From the IMG/VR virus record IMGVR_UViG_3300024331_000182, positions 1 to 59,717 of that record: a stretch of 59,717 bases of DNA; one strand, given 5' to 3'. A model generated the notes under the pieces. That model was not told the DNA's origin and did not search any database. It saw only the letters and a program-made list of their open reading frames with translations. This document shows positions 4,188 through 40,626 of this stretch, piece by piece (position 1 is the stretch's first letter; every line of letters starts with the position of its first letter). A program made the translations under genes and the position numbers. The DNA is from a virus. Its lineage: Duplodnaviria; Caudoviricetes.

Positions 4188-4233
4188 GCCGGCCCTGCAT
4201 CCATACGAGCGGCGGTAGCTATGCGCTCCGGCA
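4188..4233 (-). promoter_or_regulatory. Leader RNA hairpin with AGC/NGG internal loops
   Basis: GCCGG AGC GCAT AGC TAC-loop-GTA TGG ATGC AGG GCCGGC upstream of the tail tube RBS; same module recurs at other late genes. Confidence 0.55.
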
Positions 4234-4385
4234 GTAACTTACGCACCAGGCTAGCGGGACAGTTCATGAACTCGCGATACCCTGGCCGCAGAGGCCCGGC
4301 CCGTGCCGGGAGCCGCCTGTCCCGTTCTCGTGGTCCGGGGCAGTCAGCTCGTCTTTGGACGGTCGGCACGGTACGGGTCTCAACT

Positions 4386-4826
4386 GTGGACGAGGAGCGA
4401 TGGCTTCCGGTACCCGGTTACGCGGGCTTCTACGAGGTGTCTGACCTGGGCAACGTCTGCTCGCTGGCCCGCGCCGCCACGGCCGGAGGGCCGCTCGCCA
4501 TACAGCTCAACAGCAAGGGCTACCGGGTGGTCACCCTGTCTAAGTACGGCCGTTGCCGCACGGTTCCGGTCGGCAGGATGGTACTGGCCGCATTCCGTGG
4601 CCCGGCCAACGGGCGGCGAGCCCGGCACGGGGCGAAGGGCCGGGGTGACGACAGCCTGCCCAACCTAGAATGGCGGTTATGTCCCCGGCAGAGCTGTGCG
4701 TCGTCCTGGACGAGTGGGTCCGGCCCGGCTCCCCCGCATCGGCTTCCTCGCCGGTTACCTGGACTGAGTACTGCTACAAGGTCTACGCGGCCACCCCGCC
4801 CTGGGAGCGTAACCGGTGGGTCATGA
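4386..4826 (+). CDS. NUMOD4-domain protein with degenerate HNH (homing endonuclease remnant)
   Basis: ERWLPVPGYAGFYEVSDLGNV is the NUMOD4 signature; GYRVVTL...VLAAF.GP...RH...NLEW is an eroded HNH. Confidence 0.7.
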   Translation: MDEERWLPVPGYAGFYEVSDLGNVCSLARAATAGGPLAIQLNSKGYRVVTLSKYGRCRTVPVGRMVLAAFRGPANGRRARHGAKGRGDDSLPNLEWRLCPRQSCASSWTSGSGPAPPHRLPRRLPGLSTATRSTRPPRPGSVTGGS

Positions 4827-4951
4827 ACCTGCCCTCGTACCTGGGCCTCCGGGCCGAGATCCCCCTGGCTGGCCGGGTAACGGTCCTGGATGACCTGTTC
4901 GGCATCCCCCTTGAGATCCGCGACAGCGGCGGGCTGCCGCACCTAGAATGA
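4679..4951 (+). CDS. Small protein resembling an HK97 capsid-protein C-terminal fragment
   Basis: RWVMN..SY.GLR....AGR....LFGIPL; N-terminal VVLDEW motif. Confidence 0.45.
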   Translation: MSPAELCVVLDEWVRPGSPASASSPVTWTEYCYKVYAATPPWERNRWVMNLPSYLGLRAEIPLAGRVTVLDDLFGIPLEIRDSGGLPHLE

Positions 4952-4955
4952 CGCC

Positions 4956-5222
4956 ATGCGGCTGCGCGTCGTCATGGACGACTGGACCCGGCCGGCTCCC
5001 GGCACGATGGAGATCGACTCCGGGGCCGGCACTATCCGGATCTGGCTCCGCGAGGGCGAGTTCGTCATCCCCCGGGGCGCGATGACCGTCGAGGAGATGA
5101 TCACGGTTACCGAGCTGGCCCGGAACGGGATGCTGAACGCAGCCGCCCCTGGCGGGATCACCCTCCGGAATGGCAACATGTTCCAGATCGCACCCGGGGC
5201 AATCACGATCACCCTGGCATGA
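4956..5222 (+). CDS. Small hypothetical protein (VVMDDW motif; tail-protein-like fragments)
   Basis: Tightly packed ORF; C-terminus ITLRNGNMFQIAPGAITITL resembles the end of 18063..18503. Confidence 0.5.
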   Translation: MRLRVVMDDWTRPAPGTMEIDSGAGTIRIWLREGEFVIPRGAMTVEEMITVTELARNGMLNAAAPGGITLRNGNMFQIAPGAITITLA

Positions 5223-7017: not shown

Positions 7018-7232
7018 TCGAACACCACCTCCCTTCGCGGGTAGAAGGAAGACCGGCTCCCGGAGGCCGCGACCATGGCGTCTAGCCGGTACATCCGCCA
7101 CAAGGGCATCTCGCTGGTCTTCCGGTCCGGCTCTGGCGGGGGCGGGGTCGCCCAGTCGTCCACGACGACGGTCAGCAGGTGGCCGGAGCCGGCGCCAGGA
7201 TATTCCGGTCGGCCGGAACGTTCAGGTGTCAT
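7005..7232 (-). CDS. Small hypothetical protein (VVVDDW motif)
   Basis: ATGA-coupled to the upstream ORF; LLTVVVDDW motif. Confidence 0.4.
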   Translation of the reverse strand: MTPERSGRPEYPGAGSGHLLTVVVDDWATPPPPEPDRKTSEMPLWRMYRLDAMVAASGSRSSFYPRREVVFECVF

Positions 7233-12763: not shown

Positions 12764-14995
12764 TTACGGTGTCACCGCGCCGAAGTACATGTTGGGCGTA
12801 CTGGATACGCTTCCGGCGGTCACTGTTGACGGCAGCGTCGACTGCCCGGTGACGATCCCGGTGATCCGGGGGGCGGTCGCGGCCAGCACCGTAGAGCCGT
12901 TGTAGCCGACCAGGTTCGGCATCGCCGCAGCCGAGACCACCAGGAACCCGAATGCGTACCGCTGCCCGTCGATCTTGGTGAAGGGGGTGGTGACCGCCCG
13001 GGTGTAGGCGGTGAACGTGGACGCGAATAGCGTCGTGTCGCTGGCGCACTGCCCGAGCAGGGTCAGGTTCCCGTTCGCGGCAACGGAGTAAACGCCCATC
13101 GCGCAGTAGGTGGGCGTGGCGCCGGCTGCGGTGCTGGCCGTGTTCCCGATAATGTTATTGACCGTCTCGGTCTTGACAGCGGTCCAGTACGAAAGGGCCA
13201 TCGTCTGGGAAACCAGCGCGGCGCCCGTTCCGACATTGAGCCGGGGTATGACGGTCTCGCCCGATGCCAGGTTCTGGGAATAGAGATAATCAGGCCCGTT
13301 ATCCTGCTGGAGCGCATTGCCGTACCAGGTAGCCCCGTCGTAAGTCTCCAGCACGTAGACGTCCACCGCACCCGGTGTGGGGCTCATCACCGGGGTAATG
13401 CCGCCCGGCCACACGACGGTGCAGTTCGAGATGCTCGGGCTGCCCGTATTCGGCCATGTGACGGTGAACGGGCCGCCGGAGGCTGCCTGCTTGAGGACGA
13501 TTGTCTTGCGCTGGGCGCCTGCCTGGGTCGATGCGGCGCTCGGGTTCAGGTTGACCGTGATGCTCTGCGTGAGGGTGAGGCTGAAAAAGTCCCCGTAGTT
13601 CACCTGGGTGTTGCCATTGGTGTTATTAAGCAGGCTCTTGCCGTAGATGACCGGGCCGACCACCGTGGGAGAGTAGAAGTTACCGCCGCCGCCCAGGTTC
13701 GCATCGCCCCGGATGACACCGGTAAACGTGAAAGCGCCGACGCCCCCGGCCGGAGTCCAGTTGCTGGTCGCGAATCCTATCGAACCCTGGGCGAAATCGA
13801 GGATGCCGTAGCAGCCGAGCAGCAAGTTGCCGCTCAGGTTTCCCCACACGATGGTCTGGGGGGCGTTGCTGCCGCCGCCGGTCGGGTTCAGTTCCGCCTG
13901 GACGTCCAGGTGGCAGCTAGTGATCTTGGCAGGTCCGCCTCCGTTCAGGTGCCCGACTGGTGTCGTCCCGGTGATCCGGACGACTGCGTTCGACTGCGGT
14001 GATGCGCTGCCCTGGAAGTTAGCCCGCATAGCCAGTTTGGAGTTATACAGGAACGCGCCATTCTGGATGACCAGGCCGTCCTGGCCGACACGCGACAGCA
14101 TCTCTACCTGGAAGTCGCTGTACCCGAAGCTGTTCGTGGAGGTCGCCTGGGTAACCGTCCCGTTTCCGGTGCTGGTGGAGTTGATCGCCGCGCCGCCAGA
14201 GGTCGCGGAAAGCTGGAACGTGTTACCGGAAGCGTTGACGACAAAGTAACCGGTCCCGTTAGTGAACCCAGTCGGCGGGGTCCCCCCGGAGAGCACGACC
14301 TGGATGCCGTTGGCGAACGTCGGCGAGGCACAGGTGAATACTGCGGGCGAGGCATTTGTCGCGGTGTAGGAACCCCCTGCGGGTTCGGACACGCTGAATA
14401 CCAGGTTCCTGGTCCCGTTGATGAGCCACAGGTACCCGTGGCACTCCTCCATCCAGCAGTACTGGTTGTCAAAAAGAACATTCACGGACCCCGTACCGGA
14501 GAAGTTCTGCACCGCGATACGCAGTTCGGTGGCACGCATGTCACCCATATGCAGCCCGCAGGCCCCCGCGCCCGCGCCTGACCCGTCGATCGTGAAGTCG
14601 TACAGCCCGCCACCGGTAATGAGCCCGGTCGTGTCAGTGTTGAAGACCCGGAAGGCGTCCCCGGACCCGGTGTAATTCCAGGCGGTCGCCCACCGGCCCG
14701 ATCCCCGGATGGTCACGTACTTGCCGGTGATCGTGACCGTGCTGGTGGCTTTGTAAGCACCCGGCGGAATCCAGATGGTTCCGCCGGAGGCCGGGAGGGC
14801 GTTGACGGCGGCCTGGAGCGCGGCAGCGGAATCATTTACCCCGGCCGGGTCGGCGCCGCCCGCGAACGCGGCGTTGAGGACGTTGAGCCCGGCGCCCATC
14901 GCGGTCACCGCGTCGGTCACGGCGTTCATGTCGGCGGGCGGGTTGCCGGAGCCGATCGAGCGGGTGTCCGGCGGGAGCGTGTACTGGGGAGGCAT
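12764..14995 (-). CDS. Tail fibre/spike-like protein with pectate-lyase-like beta-helix start
   Basis: GADPAGVNDSAAALQAAVNA...GGTIWIPPGAY; G/S/T/N-rich beta composition; GGAGG RBS. Confidence 0.7.
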   Translation of the reverse strand: MPPQYTLPPDTRSIGSGNPPADMNAVTDAVTAMGAGLNVLNAAFAGGADPAGVNDSAAALQAAVNALPASGGTIWIPPGAYKATSTVTITGKYVTIRGSGRWATAWNYTGSGDAFRVFNTDTTGLITGGGLYDFTIDGSGAGAGACGLHMGDMRATELRIAVQNFSGTGSVNVLFDNQYCWMEECHGYLWLINGTRNLVFSVSEPAGGSYTATNASPAVFTCASPTFANGIQVVLSGGTPPTGFTNGTGYFVVNASGNTFQLSATSGGAAINSTSTGNGTVTQATSTNSFGYSDFQVEMLSRVGQDGLVIQNGAFLYNSKLAMRANFQGSASPQSNAVVRITGTTPVGHLNGGGPAKITSCHLDVQAELNPTGGGSNAPQTIVWGNLSGNLLLGCYGILDFAQGSIGFATSNWTPAGGVGAFTFTGVIRGDANLGGGGNFYSPTVVGPVIYGKSLLNNTNGNTQVNYGDFFSLTLTQSITVNLNPSAASTQAGAQRKTIVLKQAASGGPFTVTWPNTGSPSISNCTVVWPGGITPVMSPTPGAVDVYVLETYDGATWYGNALQQDNGPDYLYSQNLASGETVIPRLNVGTGAALVSQTMALSYWTAVKTETVNNIIGNTASTAAGATPTYCAMGVYSVAANGNLTLLGQCASDTTLFASTFTAYTRAVTTPFTKIDGQRYAFGFLVVSAAAMPNLVGYNGSTVLAATAPRITGIVTGQSTLPSTVTAGSVSSTPNMYFGAVTP

Positions 14996-15023
14996 GCCGG
15001 CCAGGTCCTCCGGGACTGGTCCC

Positions 15024-15058
15024 GGCAGCTCCCCTGCCTGCCGTGGCCGGGCCGTGCC
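15024..15058 (-). promoter_or_regulatory. AGC/NGG leader hairpin
   Basis: GGCA CGG CCC...GGG AGC TGCC upstream of the fibre gene RBS. Confidence 0.5.
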
Positions 15059-15085
15059 TCACCAGCCAGGTTACTCTGGCGAGAG

Positions 15086-18504: not shown

Positions 18505-18963
18505 TCAGGACACCTGTCCCGCCAGCGTGACCTCGGCCGAGCCGGGCAGCATGGTGATGATCAGCGGGCGGCAGACGGTGCAGGACGGGATGGACGCATG
18601 ACAGTGGCCGCCTGGGCACGGCGGGATATCGTCGTCCGCCGCGTGATCCGGCCCCAGCAGCGGGTGCGCCCCCCGGTAAAGCGGGTGCCGCGCGTCGGCC
18701 GTGGAGTCACGCCAGACCCTGCACCTGCCCGGCTCCTCGGGGCACGCCTCGTTCTCGTGACCGCCGGGGCAGGCGTTGGCCATGGCCGCGTGGTCGTGAT
18801 CTTCTGAGCAGCAGCCCGCGTCCGGCGCGCAGGCGAGGTTGGCGTCTATGTCGGAATGGGGGCACTCGTCGTGGTGCTCCCCCAGGGTAAGGAGGTGTTC
18901 CGGCGGGCAGGTGCACTCCAGGAAGACCTGGGTCATGCAGCCGGCGCACTGAACCTGGATCAA
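18505..18963 (-). CDS. Cys/His-rich hypothetical protein
   Basis: 15 Cys and 12 His in 152 aa; TTG start behind GGAAGG; stop abuts next ATG. Confidence 0.6.
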   Translation of the reverse strand: MIQVQCAGCMTQVFLECTCPPEHLLTLGEHHDECPHSDIDANLACAPDAGCCSEDHDHAAMANACPGGHENEACPEEPGRCRVWRDSTADARHPLYRGAHPLLGPDHAADDDIPPCPGGHCHASIPSCTVCRPLIITMLPGSAEVTLAGQVS

Positions 18964-19080
18964 GGCGGTCGCGGCCTTCCGGGAGAATTAACCTCCCGGC
19001 TCACTCGCTCGCAGAGCGCCGAAGTGCCACAGGCTTAGCGCCAGGTTACCAGCCGCCCTCGTGACTGGTTACCCCCGTCA

Positions 19081-19174
19081 GGGCACGGACGCAGGCCATC
19101 GCGCCAGAATTGTTCCCGGGCAGTGGACGGGAACAGCTCCGGCCCGTCCGTGCCCTTCCGGCAGCTACGGCCGC
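19081..19174 (-). promoter_or_regulatory. Structured leader with AGC/NGG module and competing inverted repeat
   Basis: CCGT AGC TGCC GGAAG GGCA CGG ACGG; 11-bp inverted repeat 19081-19091/19145-19155; 8-bp inverted repeat 19111-19118/19128-19135. Confidence 0.5.
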
Positions 19175-19189
19175 ATACTTCCCGTTAAC

Positions 19190-21385: not shown

Positions 21386-21421
21386 GATGCACGGCCTCCG
21401 CGAGAGCACTGGGTCTGGTAC

Positions 21422-21461
21422 CGCAGCTCCCCGCGCCCACGAGATGAGCGGAGGCCGTGCG
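21422..21461 (-). promoter_or_regulatory. AGC/NGG leader hairpin
   Basis: CGCA CGG CCTC CGCTCA-loop-TGGGCG C GGGG AGC TGCG upstream of the dehydratase gene. Confidence 0.5.
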
Positions 21462-29921: not shown

Positions 29922-31101
29922 GGTAGTACCCCGCCTTCGGGAGCGGGATGATGAACCTGCCCTCGTACCCGGCGGCGCGCAGCTTCGGCACCACCGAGCC
30001 CGCGACATGCCAGCAGAGCAGCAGCGCGGTCGGCGGGGCATCCTCGATCAGGGCTTTCTCGTCCACGACGGGAATCAGGGTGCCGGGGATCGTGGTGCCG
30101 ATCTTCGGGTGGCCCGGAACCTCCACGACCATGGTCAGCCATTTCTGCAACCCGGCGTAGTGGATCAGCGGGGTGGCCCGGGTGGCGGCGCCGACGCCGT
30201 ATACGGGTCCCTGCTCGCTGGCGGTCTCCAGCAGGCGGCAGAGCTGGTCGCGGGCGGCGTCCGCGCGGGCCTGGAGGTTCCCGGGGCGGCGGGTGGCGTA
30301 GGTGCGGAACGAGCCGCCGTGGGTGGCGATGTTCTCGGTCCGGGTGACCTGGAACCCGTGCTGTTCCAGCAGGCGGCCGAGGGTGGCGGGGGTGTAGTAC
30401 ATCAGGTGCTCGTGGTACACGGTGTCGATCTGGAGGCCGGCTCCGACCGAGGCGAAGTCGTGGTTCTCGCAGATGAGCGTGCCGTTGTCGTTGAGGACCA
30501 GGGCCACGCCATCCAGGAACCCGTGGATGTCGCTGACGTGGGCCATGACGTTGGACGCGGTGACCACCTGCGCCCGGCCCAGGGACTTCACGATGTCGCC
30601 GGCCAGCTCGTACGACCAGAACGCCTCTTCCACCGGGATGTTCTTCGCGCGGGCCAGGTTCCCGGCCCCGGTCGGCTCCACGGCGAGCAGCCGGGTACGG
30701 GGTTCCAGCCTGCGGACGGCGGCCAGGAACGTGCCGTCATTGGCGCCGATGTCGATGATCAGTTCCCCGTCGCCCAGCAGCCGCCCGGCTTCCGCCGCCA
30801 GGTTCCCGAAGTGGAGCCGGAGCGCGGCGGTGCTCCCGGTGACGTACGGGTGGTCGCCGGGGAAGACCTCGGCCCGGGGTACCTCCCAGGTCGCCTGGAC
30901 CAGGCCGCACCGGTCGCACTGCTGGAGGCCGAGCGGGTACCGGTGGCCGTCGTCGCGCTCGGCCAGCGGCTGGGAGCCGAGGTCCAGGACCGGAGTCAGG
31001 CACCCGCCATGGCCGCAGCCGTAGCAGTAGACGACCGGGAAGCCCGGCAGCCCGCCCGTCATGAGCTGCGCGTCCTCGTTGCGCCCGTGAGTGCGGGTCA
31101 T
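29914..31101 (-). CDS. NDP-hexose C-methyltransferase (zinc-binding N-terminus)
   Basis: CYGCG, LDLGSQPLA, YPL.L.QC..CGLVQ, IDIGANDGTFL, NVMAHV, DTVYHEH, THGGSFR, YGVGA, K.G..IPGT.IPV, FIIPLP. Confidence 0.9.
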   Translation of the reverse strand: MTRTHGRNEDAQLMTGGLPGFPVVYCYGCGHGGCLTPVLDLGSQPLAERDDGHRYPLGLQQCDRCGLVQATWEVPRAEVFPGDHPYVTGSTAALRLHFGNLAAEAGRLLGDGELIIDIGANDGTFLAAVRRLEPRTRLLAVEPTGAGNLARAKNIPVEEAFWSYELAGDIVKSLGRAQVVTASNVMAHVSDIHGFLDGVALVLNDNGTLICENHDFASVGAGLQIDTVYHEHLMYYTPATLGRLLEQHGFQVTRTENIATHGGSFRTYATRRPGNLQARADAARDQLCRLLETASEQGPVYGVGAATRATPLIHYAGLQKWLTMVVEVPGHPKIGTTIPGTLIPVVDEKALIEDAPPTALLLCWHVAGSVVPKLRAAGYEGRFIIPLPKAGYYRG

Positions 31102-32066
31102 CCGTTCTCCCGGTACCAGGCCACGGTCTCGCGGAGCCCGTCAGCGAACGGCCGGGCGGTCATCCGGCCCCCGCCCAGCCGGGTGATCTTAGCGAGGTCG
31201 GGGAGGCGCCTTGGCGGGGAACCCTGGGGCAGCGTGCCGGGCTCTACCTTGACCTGGCGGTCGTAGGACTCCGCGACCAGGCGGGCGACCTGGCTGATGG
31301 TGATCTCGTTCATCGTGCCGGCGTGGTAGATCCCGGCCGGGGTGCCCGGGTCCAGCAGCAGGGCGAGCTGGTCGGTGCAGTCCCCGATCCAGCAGAACGA
31401 GCGGGTCTCCTGGCCGGTGCCCTGGATGCGGAACGGGACCGGGCCGGACTCCGGCGGCAGCTCGGTGATGAGCTTGTTCATCCTGATGCAGAACTCGGGG
31501 ATGACGTGCTCGCGGCCCATGTCCGGGCCGTAGATGTTGTGCGGCCGGGCGATCACCACGCGGTCCAGCACCCCGGCCCGCTGCCAGGCCAGGGCGGCCA
31601 GCTCGGAGGCGATCTTGCCGCCGCCGTAGGAGTAGCGCGGGTTGAGCGGGTCCGGCACGGTCAGCGCGGTGTCCTCCGGGGTGGGCACCTTCGCGGCAAC
31701 CTGGTACGCCTCACTGGAAGAAATGAGGAGGAGGTCGCCGCAGCCGGTTACCGCGCAGGCATCCAGGACCGACAGGATGCCGCGCAGCGCGACGTCGAGC
31801 ACCTGGCGGGGTTCCGCGTAGAAGGTCTGAGTGCCCTGGACGTAGGCGGCGTGGATCACGGCGTCGCAGCCGTGCATGGCCCGGGTGACCGCCTGCACGT
31901 CGCGGACGTCGCCCTGGTGAACGGCAAGGTCGGCCCAGGCGGGCAGCCGCCTCCGCTTCCCCCGGCTGAAATCATCCAGGACGCTGACTCCGTGGCCGTC
32001 ATCCAGCAGCCTCCTCACGAGCGCCGAGCCGATGAATCCAGCTCCTCCGGTGACCAGGTACCGCAT
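31098..32066 (-). CDS. NAD-dependent NDP-sugar epimerase/dehydratase (extended SDR)
   Basis: TGGAGFIG, SSSEAY, YSYGGGK, RPHNIYGP, G.G.ETRSFC. Confidence 0.9.
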   Translation of the reverse strand: MRYLVTGGAGFIGSALVRRLLDDGHGVSVLDDFSRGKRRRLPAWADLAVHQGDVRDVQAVTRAMHGCDAVIHAAYVQGTQTFYAEPRQVLDVALRGILSVLDACAVTGCGDLLLISSSEAYQVAAKVPTPEDTALTVPDPLNPRYSYGGGKIASELAALAWQRAGVLDRVVIARPHNIYGPDMGREHVIPEFCIRMNKLITELPPESGPVPFRIQGTGQETRSFCWIGDCTDQLALLLDPGTPAGIYHAGTMNEITISQVARLVAESYDRQVKVEPGTLPQGSPPRRLPDLAKITRLGGGRMTARPFADGLRETVAWYRENG

Positions 32067-32094
32067 AGCGCACAGCTCCGTCCGGGAGTGCCTG

Positions 32095-32126
32095 GCAGCT
32101 CCCCCGGCGGGTGACAGGGGCCGTGC
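32095..32126 (-). promoter_or_regulatory. AGC/NGG leader hairpin
   Basis: GCA CGG CCCC-loop-GGGG AGC TGC upstream of the epimerase. Confidence 0.5.
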
Positions 32127-32155
32127 TCGGTATCAGGGTACCGAACCGGGGGCCG

Positions 32156-32812
32156 CTAATCCCATGTGAACCGGGGGACACCGTGCCCGGCATCTGCGTG
32201 CGCGTAGTAATGCCGCAGCTCGGAAGACAAATCTCCCTCCTCATACCAGGCCAGGTGATCGGCAACGTACGGATGCCCTAGCCGCATCGACGGGCCGAGG
32301 GAGAACAGCGGGTACTCGGTGTACGGCGCATAAAGAGCCAGGGTCGTATCGACGTTAGCCCGGTAGACATCTGGTTCCGGGTCATCCACCCAGAACCCCT
32401 GCTCCGCGCTGATGACCTCCTGCCGTCGTGACGGGGGCAGCCGGTCCAGCCGGAGACCGAGGCCGGCCTTGACCGCGCGGTACCTGCTGCGCACGTCAGC
32501 CAGCCGTTCCACCCAGTCTCCCGGGCAGCCCTCGGAGGGAACTACGTCCGGGTCCGTGACTACGTACGGCTCGGTATCGCCCCACAGGATCTCGCGGAAC
32601 TTGTCCCAGTCCCAGAGCTGCCACGGGTAGGCGTTCTCCCCGCGCCGCAGCACCGGGCAGCCGGACTCCTCCAGCTCCGCGAGCCAGACCAGCGCCGCAG
32701 GCCACGTGCTGCCGTGGTCTACTACGTGCACATCCAGCCCGGCCGACCGCAGCCCGTCAAGGCACCTCCTGGCATAGGTCACGCGGTCGCGGAAGATAAT
32801 GAACGCTTTCAC
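32156..32812 (-). CDS. GT2-like glycosyltransferase
   Basis: IIFRDR, VVDHGSTWP, YVVTDPD (DxD), VDTTLALY. Confidence 0.7.
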   Translation of the reverse strand: MKAFIIFRDRVTYARRCLDGLRSAGLDVHVVDHGSTWPAALVWLAELEESGCPVLRRGENAYPWQLWDWDKFREILWGDTEPYVVTDPDVVPSEGCPGDWVERLADVRSRYRAVKAGLGLRLDRLPPSRRQEVISAEQGFWVDDPEPDVYRANVDTTLALYAPYTEYPLFSLGPSMRLGHPYVADHLAWYEEGDLSSELRHYYAHADAGHGVPRFTWD

Positions 32813-33010
32813 TGGTTACGACGCGACATGCGCCACGGCCATCCACAGCGTGATATCCCCGAATGACGAATTACCGCATCCGCCATTCTGGCTGCCCGCG
32901 TTTGCCTCAAACTCCCACTTACCCGGGTCACCCGGATCAGGTCCCGATCCGATTACGGCTAGCCGCCGCCATGGTGTGATCATGCCCGGAATGGTAGCGG
33001 AGCGGAGCCG

Positions 33011-33922
33011 TTACTCCCAGCGCCACCGGCTGCCGGATAGCACGCACCGGATGGCCGTCCCGCTGCCCGACACGCCGCTCAGGCCGTGGTCGGACTTCCG
33101 GCAGAACTCCCCGGCCCGGTAGCAGTTCCCGCCGTTCGTCTTCGGGTAGCAGCCCCTGGCCGCCGCGTGCGAGGAGGGCGGGGGCACGCGCACGGCGCTG
33201 GTGTCCGGTGACGGCGGGGGCACGGCACGTTCCGGTCGACCGGAATTTCCGGTGGCCGTGCTGATACCCAGTACCTTCTCGGCCGTGATCCAGTTCCGGG
33301 CGATGGCGCGCTGGGCGGCGGCCAGGCTGACCCGGCCCGCGCAGACGGCGGTGTGCAGCGCGTTCTCCACCGCGTCCTTGGGGTTCGGGACGGGCGGCGA
33401 CTCCGGCCACAGGTTGCTCGCGTCGTTGCTGCCGCCCAGCTCCAGCGAGACGAGGTGGTCCAGCTCGGTCGGGGTCCCGCTGGCCACGCCGTAAGCCGGG
33501 TAGGCGGATTCGTACTTGAAGCGGCTGGTCTGGTACACCGGGGGCCGGTAGCTCCGCGTCGAGTAGCTGCCCGAGCACAGCACGGCAGCGGTGATAGCGG
33601 GGTCGTAGGCGCCCGGGGTGCAGCGCGGGTCGGGGAGCTGGCCGCCGTCGCGGTACCGGCACGGCCCGGTCAGCGTCCCGGTGACCTGGCCCGGGTCGTG
33701 CACCCGGTGCAGGCCCCGGCTGGACGTGACCGGATGTGATACGGCAGGGTGCCCGGTGGCAGGCGGCGAGGCGGACGGCGGTGCCGTGGCAGGCTGCGCG
33801 CTGGACACCGTGGTGGCGGGCGCAGGAGAAGTCACGGGAGAATACGCGGATGAGCTGCACCCTGCGGCCAGGAGCACCGCGAGAGCAAGCCCGGCCACGG
33901 TGCGTGCCTGGCGGCGGTTCAC
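33011..33922 (-). CDS. Lipoprotein with HNH-like nuclease domain and Cys-rich C-terminal module
   Basis: Lipobox LAAGC; ELDHLVSLELGGSNDASNLWPE; CYP...NCY.AGEFC. Confidence 0.7.
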   Translation of the reverse strand: MNRRQARTVAGLALAVLLAAGCSSSAYSPVTSPAPATTVSSAQPATAPPSASPPATGHPAVSHPVTSSRGLHRVHDPGQVTGTLTGPCRYRDGGQLPDPRCTPGAYDPAITAAVLCSGSYSTRSYRPPVYQTSRFKYESAYPAYGVASGTPTELDHLVSLELGGSNDASNLWPESPPVPNPKDAVENALHTAVCAGRVSLAAAQRAIARNWITAEKVLGISTATGNSGRPERAVPPPSPDTSAVRVPPPSSHAAARGCYPKTNGGNCYRAGEFCRKSDHGLSGVSGSGTAIRCVLSGSRWRWE

Positions 33923-33926
33923 GGTA

Positions 33927-34109
33927 TCAGGATACGTTCCGCCGCCAGCCCGGTAACCAGTAGTGGCGGCGCGGCCCGATCGCGTGCCCGGCCATGCCCG
34001 CCAGCACCAGGACCAGCCCGATCACGATGACGATGATGCCGAGCGTCCACAAGATGGCGATCCCGGTGATGAACCCGAAGATGAGCAGGATGATACCGAG
34101 GATGATCAT
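33927..34109 (-). CDS. Small two-helix membrane protein (DUF6131-like)
   Basis: MIILGIILLIFG...ILWTLGII...GHAIG.RRHYW. Confidence 0.6.
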   Translation of the reverse strand: MIILGIILLIFGFITGIAILWTLGIIVIVIGLVLVLAGMAGHAIGPRRHYWLPGWRRNVS

Positions 34110-34162
34110 GCCCGTCCTGCTACCCGCCAGGCCGGCAAGCATGCAGACCGCCAGCCCGGAGG

Positions 34163-34357
34163 TCAGTTGCCGACGAGCAGGGCAGCCATGTAGACGGCAA
34201 ACGCCGCCGCCATCAGCAAGGCCCACACGTTGACCGGCCTGGTGATGAAGGCGACGACGCCCGCGACGGCGGCCAGGAGCAGGGCGGCCAGGATGAGGAT
34301 GCCGTTCCCGGCTGCGTTGGCCGAGATCAGTACTGCGGCCAGGACATGCCCGTGCAT
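34163..34357 (-). CDS. Small membrane protein
   Basis: Almost entirely hydrophobic, two to three helices. Confidence 0.5.
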   Translation of the reverse strand: MHGHVLAAVLISANAAGNGILILAALLLAAVAGVVAFITRPVNVWALLMAAAFAVYMAALLVGN

Positions 34358-34528
34358 CTACTTGGTCCTGTCGTCCTTGTAGTCGTGGCCGAGATCCCGG
34401 TTCCCGTTGTGGGCCAGTTCCTTCCCGTTCTGGGCGGGGATGCCGGACCCGGCCGCGTTGGCAGCCGTGGTGCCGGAGTACAGGCCGGGCTGGAGGGCGG
34501 GCGGGTACTGCCTCGCGAGGTCGCTCAT
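34358..34528 (-). CDS. Small hypothetical protein
   Basis: GGGAG then ATG 34528; ATGA coupling. Confidence 0.45.
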   Translation of the reverse strand: MSDLARQYPPALQPGLYSGTTAANAAGSGIPAQNGKELAHNGNRDLGHDYKDDRTK

Positions 34529-34710
34529 GTCTGCTCCCACGGCCCGGGGCCGGACTCGAAGTCGCCCGTGGCGGCGCCGGTCGTGATGCTGGCCGGGCCG
34601 GAGTTCTTGTCGACCGACTGCCACTTCCCGGCCGGGGATGACGACGTGGCGTCCCACGGCTGGCCCGGGACGGCGGGCGGCGAGGTGATGGGGTCTGGTG
34701 CCTGTGCCAT
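34525..34710 (-). CDS. Small P/S/T-rich protein
   Basis: GAGGAG RBS. Confidence 0.55.
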   Translation of the reverse strand: MAQAPDPITSPPAVPGQPWDATSSSPAGKWQSVDKNSGPASITTGAATGDFESGPGPWEQT

Positions 34711-34722
34711 GGTCTCTCTCCT

Positions 34723-34995
34723 CTAACTCGCGGTTTTCCATGACGGGGGTCCGGCGGTCATGCTGCCGGCCCGCGCCCTCGGCTTGCCGTCGTCGCCTGG
34801 CCGGATCTGCCTGCTGTTGCTGGCGCTGATGGCCGGGTCGTCCTGCTGCTTGGCCGGGGGCAGCGGGTCCACCGGGGGCGAGCCCGGCGCGGTCATGGCC
34901 AGCTTGTTGTCACTGGACATGTTGCCGCCCGCCTGGCTGGTGGGAGCCAGGGCCGTGAGCGGGCCGCCGGGGAGTAGCGAACTGAGGTCTTCCAT
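34723..34995 (-). CDS. Small P/S/T-rich protein
   Basis: AGGAGGAG RBS. Confidence 0.55.
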   Translation of the reverse strand: MEDLSSLLPGGPLTALAPTSQAGGNMSSDNKLAMTAPGSPPVDPLPPAKQQDDPAISASNSRQIRPGDDGKPRARAGSMTAGPPSWKTAS

Positions 34996-35010
34996 CGTGC
35001 TCCTCCTGAT

Positions 35011-35307
35011 CTATCCCAGCGAGATGACGGCGACCTTGCTGACGCCCTGCTCGGTGACGGCGTACAGCACGGTGGCCGCCGTGTCACTGGGCGGAGCGGG
35101 GACGACAGGTGTTTCCTTCCGCTCCGGAGCCGAGAAGTCCTCGGCTGTTCCCGGCTCGATCGGGTACCCGTCGCCGGGGGTCACATCCGGGCCGCCGACG
35201 AAGATGCGGGAACCGCCGAGGTTGCGCACCCGCACCCCGCCGGAGGGCACCGTGCACAGCTCGGACGGCTTCTCGCCTACCTCGCGCGACCCGGACATGA
35301 GGCTCAT
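35011..35307 (-). CDS. Small beta-rich protein, possible capsid decoration
   Basis: VRNLGG..IFVGG..VT...GY.I.PG...LYAV pattern. Confidence 0.55.
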   Translation of the reverse strand: MSLMSGSREVGEKPSELCTVPSGGVRVRNLGGSRIFVGGPDVTPGDGYPIEPGTAEDFSAPERKETPVVPAPPSDTAATVLYAVTEQGVSKVAVISLG

Positions 35308-35313
35308 CTGCGG

Positions 35314-35868
35314 TCAGCCCTGGCCGTTCATCCGGCCGCCGCGCATGACCCGGCCGCCGCCCGGCTGGAACCGGTCGCCCCCGGCCTGCGGCTCGTTCCC
35401 CTTGAGGCCGGGGAGCTGGCCCGGGAACGACGTGCCGTAGCCGTCGTCGTTGGCCTGGGTCCAGTCCCTCGCGCCGGAGATCTCGTCGGTCACGGTCTCG
35501 CTGGCGTACGTGGTGACGCCTGCGGTAGGCCGGGTAAAGGTCACGGAGTCCGTGCCCGCGTTGCCGGGCTGGCTTCCGGTACTGCCCGGTGCCCCGGTGT
35601 GCGCGATATCGGAGTCGGACAGGCCGGTCAGGCCATCGGTGAGCTGGCCGGCCTCCACGGTCGGGTCGCCGCCCGTGCCGCCCCCGCCTGCCGTGCCGGG
35701 AGCGCCGGTTCCCTGCGGGAGGGGGCCGCCGAAGATCGCGGTGCCCCAGCCGCCGACCGGGTACTGGCCGGGCTCGTTGGTCGGGTCTGCCGGGGTGGCA
35801 GTGCCGGACTGCTCGGGGCGGGTGTTCCGCGCGGCGTCCGGGCCGCCGTAGCTCGGGTAATCAGCCAT
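35314..35868 (-). CDS. G/T/P-rich low-complexity protein
   Basis: GAGGAG RBS; repeated TGAPG units. Confidence 0.6.
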   Translation of the reverse strand: MADYPSYGGPDAARNTRPEQSGTATPADPTNEPGQYPVGGWGTAIFGGPLPQGTGAPGTAGGGGTGGDPTVEAGQLTDGLTGLSDSDIAHTGAPGSTGSQPGNAGTDSVTFTRPTAGVTTYASETVTDEISGARDWTQANDDGYGTSFPGQLPGLKGNEPQAGGDRFQPGGGRVMRGGRMNGQG

Positions 35869-35889
35869 CAGGACTCCTCTGGATTAGCT

Positions 35890-35911
35890 CCCGGCTCCTG
35901 ACGGCCTCGGG
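35890..35911 (-). promoter_or_regulatory. Minimal AGC/NGG leader hairpin
   Basis: CCCG AGG CC GTCA GG AGC CGGG just upstream of the RBS. Confidence 0.5.
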
Positions 35912-35947
35912 CTGTTCAGTTACTCCGATCATAACCGGCGGCGGCCG

Positions 35948-36421
35948 TTACAGCCTGCCTCCGTACCGGCTCATCAGGTCCGCCTTGGTCATGCCGGTGG
36001 CCGCGTGGACATCCGCGCCGTGCACCTGGACGGCGAAGTCGATCCAGTCCTGCTTGGGCGCGGACGGGGCGGGCGCGGACGGCCTTCCCTCCGGCTTGCC
36101 GTCGTCCGGGTCCTCGTCACCGCTGCCACTGCTGTCACCGGCCCCCGTCCCGTCCTCGCTGTCAGCCTGGGCGGCCCCGGCCTCAGCTTCGGCCGCCAGG
36201 GCCTCGCCCTCGATCTGGGACGGGGGCCGGGACTCGGTGACGCCCGGCTCCGGGTCCGGCGCGCTGCCGGCCGGGACCGCGATGGCGTTGCCGCCCCGGA
36301 TGAGGTCATCAGCCTCCCAGCCCGGGACATCGATCGTCTCGCCCGCCGGCGGCCACTTCCGGTCGTCGTGCCGGTATCCGGACACGCCGACGAGCATCCT
36401 TACCTTGCGTGTTCCTGACAC
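35948..36421 (-). CDS. Post-capsid protein with small C-terminal helical domain
   Basis: AGGAGG RBS; acidic linker; P..SAPKQDWIDFA...MTKADL typical of genes following actinophage capsid genes. Confidence 0.65.
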   Translation of the reverse strand: MSGTRKVRMLVGVSGYRHDDRKWPPAGETIDVPGWEADDLIRGGNAIAVPAGSAPDPEPGVTESRPPSQIEGEALAAEAEAGAAQADSEDGTGAGDSSGSGDEDPDDGKPEGRPSAPAPSAPKQDWIDFAVQVHGADVHAATGMTKADLMSRYGGRL

Positions 36422-36447
36422 GGCTGCCTCCTGTTCCTTCCGGTGCC

Positions 36448-36483
36448 CCCGGTCCGGTCACTCGCCGCAGCGACCGGACCGGG
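36448..36483 (-). terminator. Hairpin after the major capsid gene
   Basis: 12-bp inverted repeat CCCGGTCCGGTC / GACCGGACCGGG. Confidence 0.55.
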
Positions 36484-36500
36484 AACGTGCCCGCGACCGG

Positions 36501-37760
36501 CTACGAGCTGGCGCCGACGTAGACCTTGATGGCACCGGTCCGGTCGACCAGGGTGCCGTCGCCGCGCAGGATCGCACGGAACGTAACCAAGTCGCTACCG
36601 AACGCGAAGTCATCCGACCTCTCGAACCGGACGCCGCCCACCAGGCGGACGAAGTACTGCGAAAAATCACCAAAGGCGATCGACTTCGCAGAGGTGGCCT
36701 GGGCGGGCATGAACGGGTCCGCGACCAGCGGCTTCCCGAGCAGGAGGTCCGGGCTCCCGAGCACGGCCGAGGGCTCCCATATGGGTCTGCCCACGGTGTC
36801 CGTGATCTTGCGGAAACCTCCGATGGTCTTGTCCGCTGCCAGCCAGTAGCAGCTTCGTGACTGTCGATAGGGAGCGATGACGCTGTATTCGAGGTCTACG
36901 AGGTTGGCGTAGCTTGGTGCGCCGGAAACACCCGTAACCGCACCAGTGACACCCGTGGTGGCGGTGGTAACGATACCAGACGGCTGGTTGGTGCCGGTGC
37001 CGTTCACCAGGTCGTTGCCGAAGGCGTTGCCGAGCGCGCGGCCGGCCTGCATGGCGAGGTAGCCGAGCAGGTCGACAGCCGTGTCATCGATCAGCTCGCG
37101 GGCGACCTGGAGCATGACGCCGTACTTCCACGCGGAAAGCGGCTGCATGTTGAAGGCCGGGTCCGAGGTCGGGAGCGAGCCCGCCTGCGCTGCCGAGGCC
37201 GCCGTCGAGTGCGCGGTCGTCTTCGGCACCTGGAGCGTCTCGCCGCCGCCCGTGTTCAGGACGGTGGGACCGCACTGCATGACACCGCTCACTTCGATCA
37301 GGTGTGCGATGAGCATGTCGTAAAAGTCCGTGGGTACGATACTACTTGCGTTTGTACCCTGCGCACCTGTGGTAAGTACCCGGTAGTTGACCGGGCCGAG
37401 AGCCGGGTCGCGGCGGACTTCCAGCGAACGGCCGGCGCCCTCCTCGCCCCTGGCCCACTTGCGGACCTCTTCCAGCATCTTGGCCCCGCCGGCGGTGCGC
37501 TGGGCCTGCCCCTGCTCGGGCTTGCGGCCGGAGAGGTTGTCGAACGCCTCGTCCGCTTCCTTCTGCCGCTTCTCCGTGTCCAGGACCGCGCGGATGCGCG
37601 TGTCCAGCTTGCCCATCTCCTCCTGGAGGGCGTCCCAGCGGCCCTGCTCCTCGTCGGTCAGGGCGCGGTTCTCCTCGGCCGCCGTCTCGGCGATGCCCTT
37701 GGCGTCGTTCCAGACGTTCATCCGCCGGTCGCGGAGCCGCTTTGCCACTTCTGATGCCAT
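36501..37760 (-). CDS. Major capsid protein, HK97 family
   Basis: N-terminal coiled-coil delta domain; ELIDD, NGTGTNQPSGI, GRPIW, LLGKP, IAFGDFSQY, FRAILRGDG. Confidence 0.95.
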   Translation of the reverse strand: MASEVAKRLRDRRMNVWNDAKGIAETAAEENRALTDEEQGRWDALQEEMGKLDTRIRAVLDTEKRQKEADEAFDNLSGRKPEQGQAQRTAGGAKMLEEVRKWARGEEGAGRSLEVRRDPALGPVNYRVLTTGAQGTNASSIVPTDFYDMLIAHLIEVSGVMQCGPTVLNTGGGETLQVPKTTAHSTAASAAQAGSLPTSDPAFNMQPLSAWKYGVMLQVARELIDDTAVDLLGYLAMQAGRALGNAFGNDLVNGTGTNQPSGIVTTATTGVTGAVTGVSGAPSYANLVDLEYSVIAPYRQSRSCYWLAADKTIGGFRKITDTVGRPIWEPSAVLGSPDLLLGKPLVADPFMPAQATSAKSIAFGDFSQYFVRLVGGVRFERSDDFAFGSDLVTFRAILRGDGTLVDRTGAIKVYVGASS

Positions 37761-37788
37761 GATCTTCTCCGTTTCTGTGATGGCATCG

Positions 37789-37833
37789 GCACCGGCTCCG
37801 TCCGTTCACCCGGGGGTGGCTACGGCCACGGCA
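37789..37833 (-). promoter_or_regulatory. Capsid leader hairpin with two AGC/NGG loops
   Basis: TGCCG TGG CCGT AGC CACC-CCCG-GGTG AA CGG ACGG AGC CGGTG. Confidence 0.55.
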
Positions 37834-37863
37834 AGATTTTCTATTTTCTGAGCGGACCTGCTG

Positions 37864-38874
37864 CTACTCCTCGTCCGCGTAAGGGTCAGCCATGTTGTTC
37901 TGGAGGGCCAGGAGGGCCTGCGCGCCGGTCATGGCGAGACGCGGCCTAGGCCGGCTGGCGGGTTGCGGGGCCTTCCGCTGGCCGGTGTTGTCAGTGCGCT
38001 TGAAGAACTCCACCCCGCGCCCGTTCTGGAGCATCGAGCGGACCTCCTCGGGGTCGCCCTGCACCCAGTTGGCCAGCGATTCGACCGCGCCGTTGAGCGC
38101 CCGCGCGCCGGACGTCGCATCCGGGTACGCGGGGTCCAGGACCGGCGCCACGTCCACGAGTTGGACGTCGAGCAAGGTGCGCATGGGGTAGTTGAACTCG
38201 GACAGGCCCCACTCGTCGCCGCCGGGGTAGACCCTGAAAGCGAACGAGCTGTGCCGGACGTCGCCGCGCTCCACGTACTCCAGCACGTCGGCCCGCGCCT
38301 GCGGGGGCTGGACCTCGTAGACCAGGCCGGTCTCGTCGGTGGCCAGGCGCAGCGTCCGGGCGTGCGTGGTACCCAGGAGCCAGTCGTCCTTGTGGTTGTA
38401 CCGGCACACGACGTCGGGCCAGCCGTCCGTCTTGGACGTGGTGAAGGCCGACCGCGCCACCTGCTCCACGAACCCGCCCAGCTTGCGGCTCAGCCGGTCG
38501 TAGCACGCGGCATACCCGTAGATCATCGTCGGGCCGTGGTCCTGGGTCCGCAGCTCCGGCGGGAACCGGGTGAACCGGCGCTCCGGGAACCCGGACGTGT
38601 CGACATCCAGCCCGAGCGCGGCCCGCTGGTCGCCGGAGACGTTGACCCCGAACTTGCGCGCGGCGGCCAGGATCTTCGGCATCGCGTTCTTGCCGAACGG
38701 GCTCTGCGGTGCCCTGGCCAGGGCGTTCTGGGTGTGCTCCCGGTCGTGGACGGGAAAGTGCCGCTTGCCCCTGGGGGTCGTCTTCCCCGTCTGGTCCTTG
38801 GTGCCGCCAGGCTCGATATAGGCAAAAGCCGAATCGGGCAGGTCATTGATGGCGGCAGTGGTTAGTTCAGCCAT
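37864..38874 (-). CDS. HK97-type prohead protease with N-terminal DUF6582-like domain
   Basis: GYAACY, GGFVEQV, YNH, D.TGL.YEV, SSFAF, LVDVAPV..PAY; N-terminal NDLPDSAFA...FPVHD..H..NALAR. Confidence 0.9.
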   Translation of the reverse strand: MAELTTAAINDLPDSAFAYIEPGGTKDQTGKTTPRGKRHFPVHDREHTQNALARAPQSPFGKNAMPKILAAARKFGVNVSGDQRAALGLDVDTSGFPERRFTRFPPELRTQDHGPTMIYGYAACYDRLSRKLGGFVEQVARSAFTTSKTDGWPDVVCRYNHKDDWLLGTTHARTLRLATDETGLVYEVQPPQARADVLEYVERGDVRHSSFAFRVYPGGDEWGLSEFNYPMRTLLDVQLVDVAPVLDPAYPDATSGARALNGAVESLANWVQGDPEEVRSMLQNGRGVEFFKRTDNTGQRKAPQPASRPRPRLAMTGAQALLALQNNMADPYADEE

Positions 38875-38904
38875 CCCTATTTGCCTTCCTTTGCTGCTGA
38901 CCCA

Positions 38905-40557
38905 TCAGTGATCAGCCCCTGTCCTGCCATTGACACCGTTCAGCAGCAGCGTCCTGGGCGCCGGTATCCACGCGCCCACGAATTCGGGCTCGCCGTCCAG
39001 GCCGTTACCGACGCGGCCCCACGAGCCGTGACGCTGGTTCTTGCCTGGCGCGAACCGTCCGTACTCCCTGGCGAGATCCTGGACGAGGTGCTCGGGAAGC
39101 ATGATGCCGAGCCGCCCGAAAGCCTCAGCTATATCACGGACATCACGCAGGTCAGCAGCCCCGCGCCAGCCGTTACCGCCTCGTTGCTGTCCGATGACCT
39201 GGCTGAGTTCCTTGGCCGGGGTGGTCGCCACCGGGGGAACGCCCGGCATGTCCGGCATCGCCAGGCCCTCATGCTGCATCTTCTCCAGCCGGTCGGCAGC
39301 CAGGTCCATCTCCAGGGTGATGGAGTCCAGCATCGAGTTCGGGATGCCACGGATGCTCCGGGACATCGCGACCATGACCTCCAGCGGGATGTTCTCCCCG
39401 CCGGCCTTGCCCGGCAGCGGCGGCAGGTCTTCCAGGTCGCGCAGCTCATCGGTGGTGCGAAGGCCGATGGCGCGCTGCTGGGCGTAGATCTCGGTCCGGG
39501 TCTTGAGATCGGTCTTGAGCATCGCGTCGCTGTCGAACCGGACGTACCGGTTGGCGGGCAGGATGTTGAAGAAGGCGTGCTCCAGCCGGACCAGCCACGG
39601 CCGCATCGCCTCGATGATCTGGAGGGTGGACTGCTCCACGTTCGAGTACGTCAGGCTGTCGCCCCTGGTGCCCCCGATCCGCTCAGCCGGGAGACCGAGG
39701 ATGGCCGCCACCTGGCTCGCGTTCATCCTGATCGCATCAATAAATTGCGCCTCAGAAGGCGGAACTGTTACCGGTTTGTAATCCCAGTCACGCCCGTACA
39801 CCAGAGGCTCGCGCCGGCGGATGGTCGCGGTGAGCATCGAGCGGATCTCCTCGGCCTGGTCCGAGTCGATCTCTATCTCGCTGTTCTGGAACGTCCCGGG
39901 CGGGAACCCGCCGCTCTTGTACCAGTCGGTGCCGTACCGGGCGGCTTCGAGCCCGCTCAGGATGGTGAGGGCGAACGCGCGCAGCAGCGAGATCCCCTCG
40001 GTGCGCCCGGCGAGGCTGAACGCCTTGACGTGGAACAGCTCGCGGCGCCAGTCCTCCATCAGGCGGCCGTAGACGTACACCCGGGTCCGCATCGGGTTCC
40101 ACGGCTGCATCTCGTCATCGACGCAGTTGACGTCCTCCGGCGGAATCCACTCGATCCCGGTGGGGTAGCCGTAGCCGTCGCGGCCGGTGATGAAGCCCCA
40201 GGCGTTGCCCTGGAGGACCAGGCTGGTCATCATCGTGAACAGCCAGTCGAACAAGGTGCCGTCCACGGACGGCATGTCGAAAATGGACGGGCCATGCCAC
40301 CGGACGGGGGCGGCGTCCGCGTTCGGCCGCGTGTAGATCTTGAGCGGCAGCGCGGCTACGGAGTCGGCCAGCAGCCGGGCGCCGGAGTACAGCGCGGGCA
40401 GGCCCAGCGCCTCGTCCTGGCCGTAGAACGCGCGGGTGGGGTGGATAGGCCCGCCCGTGGAGAACTTCCAGAAAGGATTTTCCCAGGGACGCCAGGGGAC
40501 GCCGCCGATGACGCGCTGCTCGGAACGGCTGGCCTGGATGCGCTCAACTAGCCCCAC
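38905..40557 (-). CDS. Portal protein, HK97 family
   Basis: GTG 40557; LADSVAALPL, LVLQGNAW, G.S.L, EAQFI, YSNVEQ, T.DE.R.LEDLPP; long C-terminal tail. Confidence 0.92.
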   Translation of the reverse strand: MGLVERIQASRSEQRVIGGVPWRPWENPFWKFSTGGPIHPTRAFYGQDEALGLPALYSGARLLADSVAALPLKIYTRPNADAAPVRWHGPSIFDMPSVDGTLFDWLFTMMTSLVLQGNAWGFITGRDGYGYPTGIEWIPPEDVNCVDDEMQPWNPMRTRVYVYGRLMEDWRRELFHVKAFSLAGRTEGISLLRAFALTILSGLEAARYGTDWYKSGGFPPGTFQNSEIEIDSDQAEEIRSMLTATIRRREPLVYGRDWDYKPVTVPPSEAQFIDAIRMNASQVAAILGLPAERIGGTRGDSLTYSNVEQSTLQIIEAMRPWLVRLEHAFFNILPANRYVRFDSDAMLKTDLKTRTEIYAQQRAIGLRTTDELRDLEDLPPLPGKAGGENIPLEVMVAMSRSIRGIPNSMLDSITLEMDLAADRLEKMQHEGLAMPDMPGVPPVATTPAKELSQVIGQQRGGNGWRGAADLRDVRDIAEAFGRLGIMLPEHLVQDLAREYGRFAPGKNQRHGSWGRVGNGLDGEPEFVGAWIPAPRTLLLNGVNGRTGADH

Positions 40558-40594
40558 AGGGCCGGGACTCCCTCGCGGATCGGGTCGGGGGAAA

Positions 40595-40626
40595 ACCCGG
40601 CTCCGCGCGGGGCGGCCTAAACGGGC
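40595..40626 (-). promoter_or_regulatory. Portal leader AGC/NGG hairpin
   Basis: GCCCG TTT AGG CCGC CCCGC GCGG AGC CGGGT. Confidence 0.5.

Follow-up and report, generated by a model that had tools for sequence, protein, structure and literature searches.

Late timing in phages is usually explained by transcription, through late sigma factors, activators and antiterminators. Hairpins in leader RNAs, with internal loops that are conserved, are known to act on terminators; these include the RAT hairpins of LicT/SacY-type CAT dimers, HK022 put and lambda nut. In phage Mu the start of mom, a late function, is masked by RNA structure and is unmasked by the factor Com acting on an adjacent upstream hairpin. 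The add adenine riboswitch is an ON-type translational switch: it has a conserved ligand core and covarying helices, and one strand of its closing helix is shared with a helix that occludes the Shine–Dalgarno sequence (SD) or the start. In the symmetric loop of signal recognition particle (SRP) RNA an A–C pair has been reported as invariant (PMC4605306). Repeats tied to gene starts have been described in Cluster K mycobacteriophages, where start-associated sequences (SAS) along with their extended form (ESAS) precede non-structural genes (PMC3203893, PMC12699233). The SAS is 13 nt long (GGGATAGGAGCCC) and lies 3–7 nt ahead of the start; imperfect inverted repeats of 17 bp may be present just upstream, and RNA pairing is unsupported in the authors' own account. 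Here we describe an RNA module that recurs in the leaders of late genes in IMG/VR record IMGVR_UViG_3300024331_000182 (Caudoviricetes). The record is analysed over its full 59,717 bases, hereafter the window (28% complete by CheckV), and is a 59.7-kb piece of an uncultivated large soil phage of ~200 kb and 69% GC. The module is strongly supported as a genuine, new family of RNA motif, and forms a late-gene regulon within a clade of large soil actinophages; judged from sequence, its most likely function is translational gating.

The module lies on the coding strand in late-gene 5' leaders and has the layout P1–NGG–P2…P2'–AGC–P1' (all nine sites listed by an initial annotation of the window were read). 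Its core is a 3×3 internal loop, 5'-NGG-3' facing 5'-AGC-3', between two short GC-rich helices, and the whole is compact, at 25–50 nt. In the window it is borne by the leaders of the terminase, portal, capsid, post-capsid, epimerase, dehydratase, gene-18963, fibre and major tail genes. The loop letters GG and AGC are present in 55/55 aligned distinct copies, the copies having been chosen by model, and at the N position C stands in 43 of them, A in 7 and T in 5. P1 is a plain helix of 4–5 bp within which G–U pairs occur; P2 and P3 range from 2 to >9 bp in length. The single-loop consensus in orthologous portal, gene-35314, epimerase and terminase leaders is GCCCG-CGG-CC..GG-AGC-CGGGC, and the P1 variants seen in single modules are CCCA:TGGG, CCCC:GGGG, CCTG:CAGG, GCA:TGC and GGCA:TGCC.

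Capsid and tail leaders hold a double, pseudo-symmetric form, in which two loops flank a 4-bp helix and both strands read NGG-NNNN-AGC. Across 41 distinct capsid leaders of relatives, GGCCGTAGC and CGGACGGAGCC are nearly invariant, and the flanking and enclosed helices vary with pairing kept. P3 sequences are highly diverse; at least 3 closing pairs are nevertheless present in 33 of the 46 distinct double modules, compared with 14% of shuffles. The inner 3' triplet of 46 double modules is CGG in 39, AGG in 4 and TGG in 3. One relative (L247:1574-1622) has a double module with the conserved boxes in exchanged order (CGGACGGAGC ... TGGCCGTAGC), P2 being flipped wholesale and the architecture intact.

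Three covariance models were used: R1, for the double module, from 41 capsid leaders; R2, for the single module, from 34 leaders; and R3, also for the single module, from 48 relatives' leaders and zero window sequences. With R3 run on both strands of the window, filters off, the top 8 matches all lie in leaders on the coding strand, each at 19.9 bits or more, and rank 9 is a plus-strand match in a coding region that misses the A of AGC. Around relatives' capsid genes (37 loci, 644 kb), 80/80 R2 matches with E up to 0.5 are on the coding strand. The same holds for 28/28 R1 matches at 54 loci around tail, dehydratase and gene-18963 homologues (285 kb), most of them major-tail leaders, that is, leaders of a gene other than R1's training gene. 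Nothing comparable was seen at Actinomycetota control loci: neither R1 nor R2 gave a match below E 0.05 in 342 kb of capsid loci (28 loci), and the best R3 score on 7 of these 28 (92.6 kb, filters off) was only 18.4 bits. A descriptor scan of the window returned 17 matches on the minus strand, 9 of them intergenic, and 6 on the plus strand, none of them intergenic; Markov simulations produced 9.3 ± 3.0 per strand.

On 151 Actinomycetes genomes R1 returned 19 matches of 25.6–32.4 bits in 16 genomes, and the six inspected look like chance in GC-rich, mostly coding DNA. One intergenic R1 match in an Actinomycetes genome (L278:1328-1371, 29 bits, GGCCGTAGC...CGGACGTAGCC) lies upstream of an open reading frame (ORF) and is probably chance. 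An exact double-box pattern search of IMG/VR gave 87 stretches. Classification of 65 of these 87 yielded 46 capsid leaders, 5 tail leaders and 14 without a class; of the 14, eight (L289, L291, L299, L303, L305, L334, L335, L344) look like chance occurrences in other contexts and most of the others are capsid leaders. Rfam 15 gave 0 matches at the gathering score over the whole window, and in E-value mode on three module regions it gave only unrelated families at chance level. Literature searches aimed at such a motif found no description of it; the capsid-leader motif may already be listed, without interpretation, among the 8,495 candidate structured RNAs catalogued from IMG/VR (PMC10690425).

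The pairing is supported by covariation. In the R3 seed alignment, double-sided changes are found in 8/8 modelled pairs (40 cells), and 0/500 shuffles reach the observed value; the real structure pairs in 88.9% of cells, compared with 24–56% when partners are slid by 1–3 columns. On capsid leaders RNAalifold recovers P1, P2 (CCGT:ACGG) and a separate start helix, GATGCCAT:ATGGCATC. That helix (pairs 85–90:118–123 of the capsid-leader alignment, A1) shows compensatory change from U:A to A:U in 7 sequences and from C:G to G:C in 13, and the changes track an Ala/Pro change at codon 2. Action at the RNA level is supported, since the element is strand-specific, its stems covary with G–U pairs and vary in length, and it is complementary to the ribosome-binding site (RBS) region on the same transcript. 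The initial annotation was thus right that a constant loop sits among stems that change with pairing kept, that the module recurs in late-gene leaders as an RNA-level site, and in recognising no named family in it. The scan of both strands and of relatives with covariance models that it proposed gave coding-strand leaders.

All copies in the window given here are on the minus strand. The top R3 match (30.3 bits, E 1.4e-4) is a single-loop module at 44980–45009, CCCG-AGG-CCGG..CCGG-AGC-CGGG, in the terminase leader, and orthologous terL leaders also carry the module. The longest terminase ORF begins at 44995, within the module; by analogy with the relatives' GGTCCCGG..ATG, the ATG at 44947 is the more probable start. 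Second in rank (27.1 bits) is the single-loop module at 35888–35913 before the post-capsid gene 35314–35868, retained in at least 17 orthologous leaders, CCTG:CAGG variants included. The dehydratase single-loop module (21420–21463; 24.6 bits, rank 3) is kept in orthologues L081, L083, L084 and L085, and its leader has a -10-like TATCCT at 21471–21476. A candidate single-loop module at 7050–7075 (23.1 bits, E 0.0075, rank 4) lies upstream of a GTG start near 7014. Gene 18505–18963 has a single-loop module with a long P2 at 18993–19035 (23.1 bits, rank 5), conserved with P2 covariation in L270–L272. In the epimerase leader the single-loop module (32092–32129; 22.9 bits, rank 6) has P1 GCA:TGC, which in orthologues is GGCA:TGCC or CCCG:CGGG. 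The capsid double module, P1-TGG-CCGT-AGC-P3-(AA)CGG-ACGG-AGC-P1', spans 37786–37836 (R1 62 bits; 41 orthologous leaders), and as a single-module match the site is 37789–37834 (R3 rank 7). The portal module (40594–40627; 19.9 bits, E 0.043, rank 8) has an enlarged 5' loop, TTTAGG, with a -10-like GTAATCT 13 nt upstream; orthologous portal leaders have canonical copies with P1 covariation.

The terminase, gene-18963 and 7050–7075 copies are new relative to the initial annotation, and its capsid, post-capsid, dehydratase, epimerase and portal copies are backed by models as well as by orthologous leaders. Other sites that it had listed stand in part. The fibre-operon copy (19133–19179) is matched by R1 (23.8 bits, E 3.6e-4) and conserved in L270–L272, but is a variant double module, GGCCGTAGC-P3-CGGACGGG, without the outer AGC and P1. 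After it a conserved hairpin, GGACGGG:CCCGTCC, competes with P2 (19085–19179), and ~100 nt downstream a second promoter-like hexamer and module complete a tandem leader. The tail-fibre copy (15022–15060) is a probable single-loop module with P1 GGCA:TGCC and a -10-like TAACCT 9 nt upstream; it matches the descriptor and ranks tenth with R3 (17.6 bits, E 0.15), but no relatives of the fibre gene were found, which leaves this copy without comparative support. In the major-tail leader, where most relatives have a canonical double or single module, the window has a variant double-loop element at 4188–4233, common to L199 and missed by R1 and R3: its inner loop AGC/TGG is kept with P2 GCAT:ATGC, and the strands of its outer loop are swapped (AGC/AGGG). 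The tail leaders of more distant, AT-richer relatives (L231, L234, L237, L241, L251, L256) are without the module. A weaker plus-strand copy that had been placed at 4290–4316 is unsupported (R1 7.7 bits, E 7.7; R2 10.2 bits, E 8.2), and lies inside the NUMOD4 ORF 4221–4826.

The position of the module is as regular as its fold. A TANNNT hexamer ends 3–25 nt upstream of 77/83 distinct copies, against a background of 4.3%; the extended consensus of this -10-like motif is GGnGTAnnCTGG, and a conserved -35 region is absent. Promoters with a -10 element only are common in Actinobacteria, and the TANNNT motif resembles them. Because this hexamer lies just upstream, the module probably begins the transcript, at its extreme 5' end. 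Downstream, an SD and ORF start follow 49 of the 60 distinct single modules at a median distance of 27 nt, 45 of the 49 lying within 16–46 nt.

The element marks late genes and is restricted to them. Those downstream of modules include terL, portal, major capsid, major tail, fibre, epimerase and dehydratase, which agrees with the earlier assignment to virion and glycosylation genes and extends it to lysis in a complete relative. In this 210-kb genome (G001) model matches are on one strand and clustered in the virion block, except for a single one at 194 kb; R3 finds at least 4 copies there, 150 of 703 candidates having been scored. The outlier, at 194041–194066(-), is a canonical single-loop module before an endolysin with GH25 and peptidoglycan-binding domains (L363:13077-14012(-)), far from the virion block, and the regulon therefore includes lysis.

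In most leaders the SD or start-codon region has its complement in one half of the module or in the sequence that directly follows it. The 5' half of the dehydratase module, GCACGGCCTCCG (21449–21460), is the exact 12-nt complement of CGGAGGCCGTGC (21389–21400), which spans the SD; orthologue L083 has the compensatory pair GTACGG/CCGTAC, and the minimum free energy fold (MFE) of this leader pairs GCACGGCCTCCG with CGGAGGCCGTGC. In terminase-type leaders the 3' half, GGAGCCGGGAC, complements GTCCCGGCTCC, between the SD and the start. Gene-35314-type leaders have GGGCTCC, complementary to the SD GGAGCCC, and epimerase-type leaders have CCTCC directly after P1. The longest perfect complement between module and RBS is at least 8 nt in 15/47 copies (1.7% of shuffles) and at least 7 nt in 27/47 (7.4% of shuffles). 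In 8/9 window leaders, 5–14 of the 19 bases of the RBS window are paired with module bases in the MFE.

We consider the chances about even that the module is a late-regulon translational leader switch, in which the module fold alternates with an RBS-occluding fold and the loop is occupied by a factor. During transcription the module would be the first structure to fold. Its NGG/AGC loop would be recognised, and the module locked, by a trans-acting factor, most probably a late protein of the phage and possibly dimeric; this would leave the RBS open, and without the factor the leader would relax into a more stable, RBS-occluded fold. A dimeric protein is suggested because the loops are duplicated and pseudo-symmetric. 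The occluded folds are predicted to lie 8–28 kcal/mol below the module state, an equilibrium that binding by itself could not shift, so that control would have to be kinetic and co-transcriptional. The motif, its covariation, its bias of strand and position, its late-gene restriction and the complementarity are shown; where the transcript starts, which way the switch works, and whether a factor exists and of what nature, are inferred. The initial annotation had offered translational control or antitermination; translational control is favoured, module halves pairing with the SD or start, and antitermination is not, a scan of 31000–46000 having shown no terminator-like site at leaders between module and gene.

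Several results weigh against such a switch, and the predicted stability of the occluded folds is itself one of them. No factor was identified. A Pfam scan of 30 window proteins, 10 of them also compared with PHROGs, brought up no recognisable RNA-binding regulator. The sigma70_r2, NusG and SRP54 M domains were found in none of 5 large relatives (3 at least 90% complete), a search that did not cover CSD, S1, Com, ANTAR, L7Ae and other RNA-binding families. The alternative helix of terL leaders is 89.5% paired, yet has 1 double change only, and its covariation is not significant. The window capsid leader is an exception to the scheme: its start helix (37753–37787, minus; GATGCCAT at 37780–37787 with ATGGCATC at 37753–37760, SD in the loop) belongs to the MFE and coexists with the module without overlap. 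When module and RBS were compared by duplex energy the result was weak (mean z -0.98), with no difference from the RBS regions of module-free genes (p 0.17); the longest-complement test was used instead. A sigma-70 consensus scan found nothing at the leaders, the TANNNT hexamer being a promoter by resemblance only, and no public RNA runs are listed with this sequence, which makes the transcript start a deduction.

Other explanations share part of this evidence. A factor-independent 5' hairpin, which would shield late mRNAs from 5'-end-dependent decay and serve as a kinetic timer with the RBS open on nascent RNA only, suits a module that is probably at the very 5' end and occluded folds far more stable than the module state, and delayed-folding controls are known for the MS2 maturation gene and hok mRNA. 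We regard it as unlikely: any hairpin would stabilise, and the invariant GG/AGC in 55/55 copies, the retention of the loop despite stem change and the duplicated symmetric loops are left without explanation. It seems quite unlikely that the loop serves as a small aptamer whose ligand, be it a metabolite, a nucleotide signal or an ion, stabilises P1 and frees the RBS. With its conserved loop core, its covarying helices and strands that would also take part in an RBS-occluding helix, the element is laid out like an ON-type translational riboswitch, and the lack of a recognised RNA-binding regulator among the 30 window proteins suits a ligand. Yet the 3×3 core is very small for this purpose, at least 10 copies per genome stand before functionally unrelated late genes, the tandem symmetry in two leaders suits a dimeric protein better, and matches in the 151 Actinomycetes genomes, searched with the double model R1 only, are not above background. 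Transcription itself could be the target, if the nascent module bound RNA polymerase or an antiterminator in the manner of put or nut after promoter escape and so made late transcription processive. The absence of terminator-like sites from module to gene in 31000–46000, and of a NusG-like protein and sigma70_r2 domain from the 5 large relatives searched, makes this decidedly improbable, despite the fixed place of the module just downstream of a -10-like element and the long late operons, polysaccharide-type genes included; the enriched RBS complementarity would moreover have no role.

For an operator or promoter element bound as duplex DNA or as a DNA hairpin, there is the adjoining promoter-like hexamer and an inverted repeat, CCCG...CGGG, readable as a palindromic site. 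The P1 sequences nevertheless differ within one genome with pairing kept, including G–T positions that pair only in RNA, the lengths of P2 and P3 vary from 2 to >9 bp, and RBS complementarity with compensatory change requires a transcribed module; a DNA-level role is very improbable. We think it just as improbable that the module mimics the symmetric loop of SRP RNA helix 8 and binds host Ffh (SRP54). The SRP RNAs of three Actinomycetota genomes do read CCC-CAGG-GCC-GGAA-GGC-AGCA-AGGG, with NGG and AGC likewise oriented beside a short GC stem, and many portal leaders have a GGAA-containing apical loop. The invariant A–C pair of SRP RNAs is, however, not kept (N is C in 43 of 55), the asymmetric loop is absent, Rfam SRP models give no match on the module and R2 misses SRP helix 8. 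A wider proposal concerns the late-regulon translational switch itself: the entire late programme could be timed post-transcriptionally by a new class of riboregulator, with the module as its sensor. Virion, glycosylation and lysis mRNAs would then be made from simple -10-only promoters and stay translationally masked until a signal binds the NGG/AGC loop, and one signal would unmask them all together. The signal could be a late protein of the phage, a protein of the host (Ffh, for instance) or a small molecule reporting the state of the infected cell. We hold this to be doubtful but not negligible.

The window has a GC range of 66–75% and the majority of its genes on the minus strand, and no tRNA genes were found in it. 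By Pfam and PHROGs the genes of the window include the terminase large subunit (43139–44947, minus; PHROG match), a GT2 glycosyltransferase (40701–41444), the S78 prohead protease (37864–38874), a head-tail connector (35948–36421), the tail fibre (12764–14995, minus), the major tail protein (3709–4155, minus) and, on the opposite strand amid tail genes, a homing-endonuclease-like NUMOD4 protein (4221–4826, plus). The portal (38905–40557, minus) matches Pfam Phage_portal, and the capsid gene is at 36501–37760 (minus). What the initial annotation called epimerase (31098–32066, minus; Pfam Epimerase) and dehydratase (20312–21385, minus; Pfam and PHROGs) are both members of the NAD-dependent epimerase/dehydratase family. 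Between the capsid and connector genes, at 36421–36500(-), the window and relatives have a conserved long GC-rich hairpin of the CCCCGGCCCGCGCC...GGCGCGGGCCGGGG type, which has no U tail and probably serves as a terminator or as a site of processing. A Macro-domain protein and an FtsK/SpoIIIE-like ATPase are encoded at 50867–51352(-) and 52754–54916(-), respectively. No close deposited phage relatives were found in INPHARED by megablast, and protein matches were only distant (identity up to 32.7%). The capsid protein has 265 IMG/VR relatives, on contigs up to 210 kb, and relatives at 48–57% identity in Streptomyces, Amycolatopsis, Pseudonocardia and other Actinomycetota genomes; because capsid relatives sit in such genomes, the sequence suggests that the host is likely to be actinobacterial.

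In this clade of large actinobacterial phages almost all late operons bear a reusable RNA operator that is tied to RBSs, which points to a genome-wide translational layer of late control. For high-GC hosts the module would be a compact and portable switch, apparently gated by a factor; for the start-associated repeats of actinophages, long unexplained, it supplies a concrete starting point that can be tested. The distant relatives whose tail leaders are without the module should be useful for phylogenetic profiling of the factor.

Among known systems, SRP RNA helix 8 resembles the module in its non-canonical NGG/AGC loop, which adjoins a short GC stem and a small apical loop (CAGG-GCC-GGAA-GGC-AGCA in SRP RNA, NGG-CC..GG-AGC in the module). 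Membership was rejected, as the loop is 3×3 and not 4×4, the A–C pair is lost, there is no asymmetric loop and the models do not cross-match either way. The sole SRP-model match (Fungi_SRP, 8.2 bits, E 2.8) lies beside a module and not on it, the portal-type module gave none, and R2 found no match on the SRP helix 8 of L273–L275. The likeness to RAT hairpins lies in the pseudo-symmetric loops suited to a dimer and in an alternative pairing that decides the outcome; in the leaders studied here the competing partner is the RBS, with no terminator present, in contrast to RAT, put and nut. The module was not assigned to the put/nut processive antitermination RNAs, since neither terminator-like sites in 31000–46000 nor a NusG domain in the 5 large relatives was found. 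Like RNA switches in general, it is a conserved structured sensor element with covariation, and it shares with ON-type riboswitches a conserved core, covarying helices and probably a closing-helix strand that can also enter a helix masking the SD or start. It is unlike them in its 3×3-loop core, its presence before unrelated late genes in at least 10 copies per genome, a ligand that is probably a protein, and the lack of an Rfam match. Mu Com-mom differs in having one target gene where here there is a whole late regulon, and the sequences are unrelated. The nearest described phenomenon is the SAS/ESAS of Cluster K: both are actinophage repeats of a single orientation, associated with gene starts and found ahead of genes that have long intergenic gaps. 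In the gene-35314-homologue leaders of L024 and L047 the RBS context, ATAGGAGCCC, is nearly the Cluster K SAS. Membership was rejected on the arms, which in the ESAS of phage Anaya are AT-richer 17-bp inverted repeats of the TGTTGACATGCATACAG type, unrelated to the module, and on an SAS-like RBS that is only partial and confined to a few relatives' leaders, the window not having been scanned for SAS. The module thus stands apart from these repeats by its sequence, by the late class of its genes and by its covarying stems.

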